NCBI RefSeq assembly: GCF_030013205.1
Contig: NZ_CP122650.1
Length of the DNA stretch: 58,594 bases
Strand: one strand, 5' to 3'
Source: Escherichia coli
GTDB taxonomy: Bacteria; Pseudomonadota; Gammaproteobacteria; Enterobacterales; Enterobacteriaceae
A program made the position numbers. Shown piece by piece: positions 49,801 to 52,800 of this stretch (position 1 is the stretch's first letter; each line of letters starts with the position of its first letter).

Positions 49801-52800
49801 TTTGTGGATGCCGGAAACAAAAAGCTGGTCTTCTGGTTTGTTCGTGTCGATGACGAAGGGTATCCTGAAATAGCCCGCTGCACGGAGCGGGAGTTTGCGA
49901 CCATTCTTGCCGGTATCAGCGCCGGCGGCATGTACTGCCCGGAGTGTGGCACGGTTCACTGGCCGGACGGAGTCCCCCCGCCCTTCTGATGCTTCCCCGT
50001 TTTGCCGACATTTTTCAGCAGGGAAACCGCTGGCTTAACTGGCTGGAGAAACAACCGGAAGGTTCAGTGCGTCCGGTAGTCATTGAGTCGGTGACAAAAA
50101 TCATGGCGTGCGGAACCACGCTGATGGGGTACACACAGTGGTGCTGTTCATCTCCGGACTGTTGCCACACAAAAAAGGTCTGCTTCCGGTGTAAAAGTCG
50201 CTCCTGCCCGCACTGCGGAGTGAAGGCTGGCGCACAGTGGATACAGTATCTGCTGAGTCTGGTTCCCGACTGTCCGTGGCAGCATATTGTGTTCACACTT
50301 CCCTGCCAGTACTGGTCCCTGGTGTTCCACAACCGGTGGTTACTGGCAGAGATGAGCCGCATTGCTGCGGATGTGATACAGGAAATCTGCCGCCAGGCAG
50401 ATGTGGTGCCGGGGATATTCACGGTCATCCACACATGGGGACGTGACCAGCAGTGGCATCCGCACATTCACCTGTCGACAACGGCCGGCGGCGTGACACC
50501 AGACCACACCTGGAAAAACCTTCATTTTTACGCCCGTAAGGTGATGAGCATGTGGCGTTACAGGATAACGTGGTTACTGTCACGAAAATACCCGGAGCTG
50601 GTGATACCGGATGCGCTGGCAGTTGAAGGAAGCAGCAGACGGGACTGGAATCGCTTCCTGGACAGTCATTACCGGCGGGGCTGGAATGTCAACGTATCCC
50701 GGGTGATGGATAACGCCACACATGTGGCGGTGTACTTCGGCTCTTACCTGAAAAAACCGCCGGTGCCGATGAGCCGTCTGGAGCACTATGCTGGTCAGGA
50801 TGAAATTGGTCTGCGTTACAACAGTCACCGGACAAAACGGGAAGAATACCTGGTGATGAGTGGTGATGAGTTTATGGAAAGGTTCTCCTGGCATGTGGCG
50901 GATAAGGGGTTCCGTATGGTGAGGTACTACGGTTTCCTGAGTCCGGTGAAGCGCCGGTTACTGGAAGATGTTGTGTACGTCATAACGGAGACGGTGAGAA
51001 AGACGGCGATGCAAATCAGGTGGAGAGGGATGTATCAGCGGTTACTGAAGGTTGACCCGCTAAAGTGCATCCTGTGCGGATGTCAGATGCGTTTTACGGG
51101 GCTGAAGCGGGGCTACCGTCTGACAGAGCTGGTCCTGATGCATGAGCCACTGGCGCAACAGCGGGTGTGCGGCTGAGAGCCGCATCGGGGAAGTTGCGTC
51201 CATTTTCAGGGGAATGGAGTAAAAAAACCATCAGTGATATACAGTATCACTCGATAAGATCCATTTAATTGATGGCGGTGCACTCATGGCACGCAGGCAG
51301 TGTTGAATAAACATCCGTTTTTGGGTGTTTTTTTAATCTTTTTGGGATTTAAATTCCTATCGATCAAGTTCTGCCTGTCTGCGAAGCAGCGCCCATACCG
51401 TCTGACAGAGCTGGTCCTGATGCATGAGCCACTGGCGCAACAGCGGGTGTGCGGCTGAGAGCCGCATCGGGGAAGTTGCGTCCATTTTCAGGGGAATGGA
51501 GTAAAAAACCATCAGTGATATACAGTATCACTCGATAAGATCCATTTAATTGATGGCGGTGCACTCATGGCACGCAGGCAGTGTCGAATAAACATCCGTT
51601 TTTGGGTGTTTTTTTAATCTTTTTGGGATTTAAATTCCTATCGATCAAGATAACCGCTTCCTTTTCGCCCTGCCCTGTAGTTCATATCCCCCTGGACAAA
51701 AATGCATTATCGGAAAAAATGTCCAAAATTTTTTCTGGTGATCGGAATTTTTGTTGTCGGACGCACCTCTGCTTCAGGTCATAATTGCTGGCACGTCCAA
51801 AAAAACAGGTGCGGAGATTAAAAATTGAGTCACTTACCCGCCAGCATTTCCCAGATTTCACGTAGCACACCACCGCTACTGCATCCATCAACAAAAAATG
51901 ACGTTTTTTTAATTACTTTGTATGCTGCAACTTACTGAAAAAATGGGATTCATGATAATGCCGGTAACGGCATCGTTCTGTTGGCCAACGCGATCAGCGG
52001 TATTGACTGCAACAAAAAATGAAAGAAAAATCCCTCAAATGAAGGGGAAAAAACGGAAGTACAGCCAAACGACAGGCACAAAAAAAACCGACGGGTAATC
52101 GGGCTTTTTTGTGTTTTCCAGCCCTGAGTTGGTGGCTCTGGCTGGAGTGGAACTGTCTTCAACCAACACCGAAGAACAACCGATATGACAGGCAGTGTAA
52201 GAGTAAGTATCGGGAGTCTGCTCCATATAATGGAGTAAACGGATGATTGATAAAGCAATCATCGTTCTGGGGGCACTAATCTCACTTCTTGAACTGATTC
52301 GCTACCTTCTCCAGTTGATGGGCTGATGGCGGAAACGTAACTAAGGCCGGGGGCTAACCACCTCCGGCCTTTAATAAAAACATATTTTAGTTACAATATT
52401 CAAATGCATTGACTAAACACCACACACCCAATCTCCTGAGTTAATATCCTGCCTTGCAGGTATATTAGCCCCCTACTCCTCTACTTACTGGATTTCTGCC
52501 CGGTTTTACGTTTTAGCGCATTACTGATTGTGCCACGGCTGCACCCTAGCACTTTCTGTACCTGTGTCCAGGAGCTACCGCTTTCTATCAACCTGATAAT
52601 TGCATCATGTCTGGCTTGATTAGGTTTACGCCCTTTATATTTGCCGTCTTTCTTTGCTTTCTCTATCCCTTGTTTCTGGCGTTCCCGACGTTGTTCATAG
52701 TCCCTTCTGGCAACTGCGGCCAGCATATCCAGCAGCATATCGTTAATGGCTGCAAACAACCGGCTGTCAAACTCACTCATACCAGAATTAATCCATGTCG

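Follow-up and report, generated by a model that had tools for sequence, protein, structure and literature searches.

A plasmid-borne agrB-dinQ locus of the IncX1 backbone without its native promoters: probably a disarmed addiction module

The locus described here raises the question of whether a 27-codon reading frame beside the resolution and partition genes of an Escherichia coli plasmid is the toxin gene of a working addiction or stress module, or what a deletion has left of one. The window, that is, the whole stretch of 58,594 nucleotides of contig NZ_CP122650.1 that was analysed, carries an ORF (Table 1) that exists and translates exactly as originally stated, into MIDKAIIVLGALISLLELIRYLLQLMG followed by a stop codon. 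This peptide is identical to K-12 DinQ at 23 of 27 positions (85%) and similar at 26 of 27, keeps the DinQ residues E17, R20, and Q24, and scores 55.5 bits on the NCBIfam profile NF041472 (toxin_DinQ; cut-off, 30), which makes it a member of the DinQ profile; its 14.3 bits on NF041473 (DinQ_rel; cut-off, 35) place it outside the DqlB subfamily. At the DNA level, the homology with chromosomal dinQ spans the leader, the ORF, and the terminator. Judged by its sequence, the ORF is the toxin gene of an agrB-dinQ type I toxin-antitoxin module, a known family, on an IncX1 backbone. The original prediction of a DinQ-like peptide, encoded by a type I toxin gene on a plasmid and located beside resolvase and partition genes, was therefore correct in both assignment and setting.

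The gene is not new to the databases. A 581-bp region around it is 100% identical, with coordinates offset by 2, to NZ_CP122647.1 (plasmid unnamed4 of E. coli ETEC4079; 58,596 bp; IncFIA/IncX1; Belgian pig faeces), where PGAP labels the ORF "dinQ: damage-inducible type I toxin DinQ" (WP_000565612.1), as RefSeq/PGAP does in hundreds of other records, and the same region is matched in 550 PLSDB plasmids. Nor is the family new to plasmids: dinQ-like (dql) genes on plasmids of Enterobacteriaceae were defined by Kristiansen et al. in 2016 (PMC5066626), and in 2025 the dqlB/agrB loci of pOXA-48 and of the IncX3 plasmid pOXA-484 were experimentally proven to be addiction modules in which the toxicity of dqlB is neutralised by base-pairing of AgrB with the 5' UTR (PMC12365149, PMC12317039). 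In view of this annotation and these papers, the suggestions that the ORF was unannotated, too small for gene callers, and of a type unusual for plasmids do not hold; the gene, the family, and the family's role in plasmid addiction are already known. A literature search for dinQ together with IncX1 returned no paper, and the short form of the locus described below, with its recurrent, repeat-mediated loss of promoters, is not described in the literature searched. This deletion is the point that is new relative to that literature, and it is a modest one.

Several of the predicted expression signals are present. The GGAG ribosome-binding site lies where expected; the hairpin downstream of the stop codon is strong and aligns with the terminator of K-12 dinQ, giving the ORF the Rho-independent terminator that directly follows the toxin stop in DinQ/AgrB loci, and a simple terminator scan missed it because its U-run is short. 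The claim that the gene has its own promoter stands only as far as the letters go. A perfect TATAAT hexamer does occur at 52226-52231, and together with GGAG and the terminator hairpin it might suggest a self-contained toxin gene transcribed from that hexamer. Its best −35 match is 2/6, it has no TG extension, and a consensus scan does not call it; in predicted folds it belongs to the loop and to the region of the 3' arm in the hairpin that sequesters the Shine-Dalgarno sequence (CUCCAU-AUA-AUGGAG), a conserved element that is found equally in intact relatives whose real promoter lies ∼190 nt upstream. Transcription from it would begin at ∼52238, 3' of the Shine-Dalgarno sequence, with a leader of 5 nt, and would amount to constitutive, unregulated expression of a membrane toxin, which would not be tolerable. 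We have rejected the hexamer as a promoter and regard a gene driven by it as highly improbable.

Table 1. Positions of the features of the dinQ locus in the window and of the chromosomal reference locus (L002) of K-12
Feature	Position	Strand	Remarks
Promoter-like site TTGACT-17-AAAAAT	52003-52031	+	9/12; candidate for read-through transcription only
AgrB-like sequence	52079-52166	-	Rfam RF02891, 69.2 bits, full model
Deletion junction	52134-52135		Absent 187 bp correspond to L005:1554-1740 of pSTEC299_2, also in sm140
Single retained 33-34-nt repeat copy, target type	52135-52167		Two copies 187 nt apart in intact relatives
"Sequence 2" equivalent GCUGGAGUGGAAC	52141-52153		Within retained repeat
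Hairpin sequestering the Shine-Dalgarno sequence, UGCUCCAU-AUA-AUGGAGUA	52219-52237	+	Counterpart of "sequence 3:4" of K-12 dinQ; predicted folds
Shine-Dalgarno GGAG	52232-52235	+	7 nt before ATG; counterpart of G184-G187 in K-12 dinQ mRNA
dinQ-family toxin ORF	52243-52326	+	27 codons and TGA; product identical to WP_000565612.1
Toxin terminator hairpin	52343-52371	+	11-bp stem, then UUUAAU; homologous to K-12 dinQ terminator, stem bases changed
Resolvase/recombinase gene, IncX1 backbone	52481-53143	-	Convergent with dinQ
ParA/MipZ-like partition ATPase gene	53506-54168	+	
K-12 agr genes (two)	L002:368-451, 599-682		Upstream and divergent
K-12 dinQ +1	L002:763		
K-12 "sequence 1"	L002:778-790		
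K-12 AgrB target	L002:850-881		
K-12 "sequence 3"/"sequence 4" Shine-Dalgarno hairpin	L002:929-949		
K-12 dinQ GTG start	L002:957		

The genuine promoters of this module can be located in its intact relatives. In IncX1 loci with an identical toxin, a gene for the agrB antisense RNA runs divergently from the toxin gene, the two promoters stand back to back, and the toxin leader measures ∼190 nt. We used as intact loci those of pSTEC299_2 (NZ_CP022281.1; L005) and of the Salmonella sm140 plasmid (NZ_CP125222.1; L007), as well as pEC31-3, and as chromosomal reference the K-12 dinQ-agrAB locus, which lies in the arsR-gor region (Weel-Sneve 2013, Kristiansen 2016), with the published numbering (GUG at G195). 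Aligned with pSTEC299_2 and sm140, which share the protein and the flanks, the window shows one gap of 187 bp, at 52134|52135. The sole direct repeat in the pSTEC299_2 locus is a 34-nt pair, 85% identical and exactly 187 nt apart, whose members are the 5' antisense segment of agrB and its target in the toxin leader. The missing 187 bp hold (i) the minus-strand promoter of agrB, TTGCAT-17-TATTAT, at a distance of 7 nt from the 5' end of AgrB; (ii) the toxin promoter, with a TATAAT aligned with the −10 element of K-12; (iii) the toxin mRNA from +1 to ∼+85, which takes in the area around the +44 processing site; and (iv) the equivalent of the "sequence 1" lock, UAACUCCAGCC, which is complementary to GGCUGGAGU. 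The deleted promoters align with the K-12 promoters. The pairing of sequences 1 and 2 is taken here from the complementarity of the two and from the published SHAPE model, as a minimum free energy fold of the long-form mRNA failed to return it.

The window consequently falls short of the architecture of the family in three respects, all of them traceable to this deletion. Of the four elements of the 5' UTR, three (2, 3, and 4) remain and are colinear with those of K-12, and element 1 is deleted along with positions +1 to +85; the segment that would hold the toxin's own σ70 promoter, ∼190 nt upstream, is absent; and the AgrB-like element has no promoter of its own, the hexamer in the equivalent position being TGTTCT. 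The alignments show the locus to be a deletion derivative of the IncX1 agrB-dinQ module, without the two predicted native promoters and the 5' regulatory part of the mRNA.

The deletion also bears on the antitoxin. The antisense RNA element that had been suggested for the opposite strand, within 51,950-52,400, was found there as an AgrB-like match to RF02891 of 69.2 bits, and Rfam and the predicted fold together give it the stem-loop (52117-52146), the terminator (52079-52111), and the leader-complementary 5' end (∼31-36 nt) that characterise the AgrB family. The stem-loop and the terminator are those of a true agrB. The remaining part corresponds to the toxin-leader target in reverse complement, and the 5' 30 nt of the match run directly into the toxin leader past the target; since a single repeat copy remains, the complementary segment is the target itself. 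Given a 187-bp deletion between the repeats, the "AgrB" at 52079-52166(−) is, by its sequence layout, a chimera of an AgrB body fused to the toxin-leader target. Rfam was set aside as a test for an intact antitoxin, because the model, with 69 bits for the chimera and 65 bits for a genuine long-form AgrB, cannot separate the two. In reverse orientation, the AgrB terminator has a stem of only 4-5 bp in the window, its left arm being weakened in this plasmid. A second AgrB gene lies in the window at 34041-34128; cross-protection by it was considered unlikely, as its 5' segment matches the target over the first ∼14 nt only, with mismatches, as judged by eye.

To place the short form in a population context, we queried PLSDB for each form. 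Two types of junction exist. Type S1, which includes the window, the Salmonella Heidelberg plasmid pAR-0404-1, an E. coli O111 plasmid, and BE2-5, keeps the target-type repeat (…GGAGTGGAACTGTC…), and type S2, which includes AVS0096, an Escherichia albertii plasmid, and N18EC0432, keeps the agrB-type repeat (…GGAGAAGAACTCTC…), so that their crossover points differ. Junction-specific queries returned 203 plasmids for S1 and 26 for S2 (at ≥99% identity), and the long-form-specific 187 bp (at ≥80% coverage) returned 90 intact ones; by these counts, which run high because the same plasmid lineages were sampled repeatedly, about two-thirds of the IncX1-type dinQ loci in PLSDB would have lost both promoters through deletion between the antitoxin and target repeats. 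The presence of the identical S1 junction in 203 independent complete plasmids rules out a chance ORF or an assembly artefact. The flanks of S1 differ from those of the long-form plasmid pEC31-3 at 9-10 of ∼740 sites and from those of S2 at 40, whereas S2 flanks are closest to the long forms sm140 and p12-6334 (24-25 differences). With two junction types on different flank haplotypes, the deletion has arisen at least twice.

The two types also differ in the state of their toxin genes. All S1 copies sampled have an intact toxin core and ORF (99.6-100% identity). Among the six S2 toxin cores that were read, two are frameshifted (MIDKAIIVLGR*), one has IS421 inside the ORF, one combines an I2L substitution with a 1-nt deletion in the loop of the Shine-Dalgarno hairpin, and two are intact; truncated dinQ copies exist elsewhere as well. 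That the S1 short form is the commonest of all (203 plasmids against ∼90 intact ones), with an intact core in every sampled copy, runs counter to its being a relic, although S1 may simply be a young and successful clone. A further observation of this kind is the leader between the repeat and the ATG, which is invariant across all forms (0/64 sites) amid flanks that vary at 12-16% of sites.

We then asked whether another promoter serves the short form. Across 51700-52600, a consensus scan found nothing on the minus strand and, on the plus strand, a single promoter-like site 240 nt before the ATG. Its −35 hexamer, TTGACT, is found in this plasmid and in one or two almost identical records alone, with TTGGCT in other S1 copies and TTGGCC or TTGGCT in long forms at the same position, which rules out a compensatory promoter conserved in short forms. 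The window differs from pSTEC299_2 by 24 differences in all, and because the density of substitutions is similar on either side of the deletion, TTGACT is no evidence of adaptation. On the minus strand, a relaxed scan gave candidates of 8/12 at best, with spacers of 15-16 nt. Scans of this kind have their limits, as a missing match to the σ70 consensus is no proof of silence. The improved TTGACT hexamer and the weakened arm of the AgrB terminator could together permit read-through into the toxin gene, and the convergent resolvase gene could supply antisense read-through.

Taken together, these data suggest, with a probability of roughly 0.7, that the module is not transcribed and persists as a disarmed addiction module, carried along with the resolvase and partition genes of the backbone. 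By analogy with dinQ/agrB and dqlB/agrB, the toxin mRNA of the intact relatives, of ∼330 nt, would be made from a constitutive promoter, with its Shine-Dalgarno sequence locked in a hairpin and freed by 5' processing. The divergent, unstable AgrB RNA would pair with a 33-nt segment of the leader, both keeping the Shine-Dalgarno sequence closed and triggering cleavage by RNase III; after loss of the plasmid, AgrB would decay and the membrane toxin would kill the cell. The window would owe its 187-bp gap to recombination or slippage between the 34-nt direct repeats at the agrB 5' end and the target, which took away both promoters and the region of the toxin mRNA responsible for the 5' lock and processing. 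What is left is an intact toxin ORF with its Shine-Dalgarno hairpin and terminator, and the AgrB body together with its own terminator; neither has a promoter that can be recognised, and we infer that neither toxin nor antitoxin is expressed at meaningful levels. Loss of function fits the recurrence of the deletion and the lesions in S2 copies. A separate dqlB locus is also found on IncX1 backbones, ∼5.4 kb away, and may make the loss of the dinQ module tolerable. The working module of the original prediction is thus best read as a disarmed derivative whose promoters have been deleted.

A different reading of the same deletion is that the short form still works, having been converted from a trans- to a cis-antisense type. 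Transcription of the toxin would then start upstream, with TTGACT-17-AAAAAT as one possible origin, and would pass the weak AgrB terminator in its reverse orientation; the chimeric AgrB, by now perfectly complementary, would come from a cryptic minus-strand promoter or from read-through out of the resolvase gene. A transcript from ∼52038 to the toxin terminator would measure ∼335 nt, close to the ∼330 nt of dinQ, and in its predicted fold part of "sequence 2" is taken up by the reverse AgrB stem (CCAGCC/GGCUGG) and the Shine-Dalgarno hairpin is closed, which mimics the locked +1 form. The short stem of the AgrB terminator and the majority status and intact core of S1 also speak for it, and such a module, if real, would account for the predominance of the short form among IncX1 plasmids. 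However, the −35 hexamer on which it draws is restricted to this plasmid and its nearest records, the upstream segment is just as conserved in long forms, neither of whose transcripts covers it, and minus-strand candidates do not exceed 8/12, the best of them with a spacing of 15-16 nt. Moreover, S2 copies are decaying, and it would be hard to restrain a toxin whose antitoxin had no dedicated promoter. We therefore regard a still-working short form as unlikely, and quite unlikely the specific proposal that the repeat-mediated deletion turned a trans-acting module into a compact, functional cis-antisense one with the chimeric AgrB as its antidote.

The toxin ORF might instead be retained for the host rather than for addiction, expressed through occasional read-through in stress or persistence, as has been proposed for chromosomal dinQ. 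Chromosomal DinQ is toxic on overexpression and linked to the SOS response and membrane physiology (PMC3567139), and the ORF and leader core in the window are intact. Against this, no LexA box occurs at or around the locus in the window (CTGT-N8-ACAG, up to 1 mismatch) or in the intact IncX1 long form's promoter region (CTG-N10-CAG), no promoter was found, and lesions accumulate in S2 copies. We give a host-level role only a slim chance. The lack of LexA boxes also argues against the SOS-type stress module envisaged at the outset, and it makes "damage-inducible" a misnomer here, a name inherited from the chromosomal gene.

If the locus is indeed a silent relic, an annotated dinQ accompanied by an Rfam match to AgrB does not equal a working toxin-antitoxin module, and surveys that count toxin-antitoxin systems by gene or HMM matches will overcount functional ones. 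With the antitoxin gene and the target forming direct repeats on either side of both promoters, a route to self-disarming deletion would be built into the module, and the two junction types support the view that this family takes it recurrently. Should the short form prove active after all, it would illustrate, in a natural setting, how antisense control can switch from trans to cis.

The comparison with known systems puts the locus in perspective. Its closest counterparts are the intact IncX1 agrB-dinQ modules of pSTEC299_2, sm140, and pEC31-3, with which it shares the toxin (WP_000565612.1), the left flank, the resolvase and ParA neighbours, the leader core, the Shine-Dalgarno hairpin, and the terminator; it differs from them in lacking the 187 bp with the agrB and dinQ promoters, mRNA positions +1 to ∼+85, and the "sequence 1" lock. 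The K-12 dinQ-agrAB locus, whose agr 5' segment and target are likewise separate direct repeats in the DNA, encodes a toxin 85% identical to that of the window, and elements 2, 3, and 4, the Shine-Dalgarno hairpin, the position of the start codon, and the terminator are colinear, with the stem-loop and terminator of the window AgrB recognisable by Rfam. The window has ATG instead of GTG, one agr element instead of two, and a plasmid instead of a chromosomal location, and it has neither LexA operators nor promoters, "sequence 1," or the +44 region. The dqlB-agrB modules of pOXA-48 (IncL) and pOXA-484 (IncX3) belong to the same family, serve in plasmid maintenance, and have an AgrB that base-pairs with the 5' UTR; experiments there demonstrated toxicity, its relief by AgrB, and post-segregational killing, whereas the IncX1 dinQ type is known here by sequence. 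They possess both promoters, and DqlB represents another subfamily, on whose profile the window peptide stays below the cut-off. Finally, hok/sok of R1 has no sequence relationship with the locus (the NCBIfam scan gave DinQ models only), and Sok has a strong promoter of its own, of a kind not seen in the window. The logic of the two systems is nevertheless alike, with a small membrane toxin, a locked full-length mRNA that is activated by processing, and an unstable antisense RNA, and the short form, if it were expressed, would resemble hok/sok in its cis-antisense layout as well.

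A second dinQ-family locus is present in the window, at 33404-34470, with two AgrB-like matches, a hypothetical ORF of 140 aa inserted between them, and a dqlB pseudogene farther downstream (see table). In an alignment read by eye with the intact dqlB locus of pAST215_2, this second locus lacks ∼120-130 bp, the gap lying between two short GCCGTTG repeats, and with it the dqlB ORF has lost its Shine-Dalgarno sequence, start codon, and N-terminal half. The agrB copy at 34041-34128 still keeps a promoter-like TTGCTT-17-TAAAAT, also identified by eye. Each of the plasmid's two dinQ-family modules is therefore defective, in its own way.

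Features of the window, with Rfam scores where available
Feature	Position	Strand	Evidence or remark
AS-pc02 antisense RNA	26901-27077	minus	Rfam, 168 bits
CopA antisense RNA	29210-29301	minus	Rfam, 99 bits; adjoins IncFII repA
AgrB-like match, second locus	33404-33488	minus	Rfam, 55.7 bits
AgrB-like match, second locus	34041-34128	minus	Rfam, 64 bits
dqlB pseudogene	∼34374-34430		PGAP, missing N-terminus; downstream of the AgrB-like matches
ColE1-type RNAI	35901-36000	plus	Rfam, 73 bits
IS91-family transposase gene	49944-51176
Tandem duplication	51114-51649		∼281-282 bp, copies 99-100% identical; directly downstream of the IS91-family transposase gene

Two further toxin-antitoxin remnants were observed, at ∼31150-31525 and ∼35220-35700: in one, a CopG-family antitoxin gene precedes a truncated RelE/ParE toxin pseudogene, whereas the other comprises a PemK/MazF toxin gene, beside which no PemI is annotated in the RefSeq record.

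Together, the AS-pc02, CopA, and ColE1-type RNAI matches show that a single plasmid carries three or more systems of replicon control. The tandem duplication comprises the 3′ end of the IS91-family transposase gene plus the adjoining IS end. The hypothetical gene WP_000091308.1 (121 aa) occurs in three copies (∼31570-37670 and 49620-51180), and an identical IS91-family transposase gene (WP_000937591.1) comes after two of them. These copies are placed around the alpha-hemolysin export genes (hlyB-like and hlyD), which suggests that the IncFIA/IncX1/IncFII mosaic was put together via IS91.

Compared with the second locus (window 34320-34370), the intact dqlB locus of pAST215_2 (L004, 1940-1990) is missing 10 nt (GTGCTCTGGCA) from the 5′ edge of its AgrB target, and the length of the antitoxin-target segment thus differs from one dqlB locus to another. 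In the intact IncX1 agrB-dinQ modules (pSTEC299_2, L005 1554-1774, and other long forms), the 5′ segment of AgrB is only 85% identical to its target (29/34), with two of the mismatches predicted by eye to form G·U pairs. This complementarity is lower than that of K-12 agrB (30/31) and close to that of the inactive agrA (25/31).
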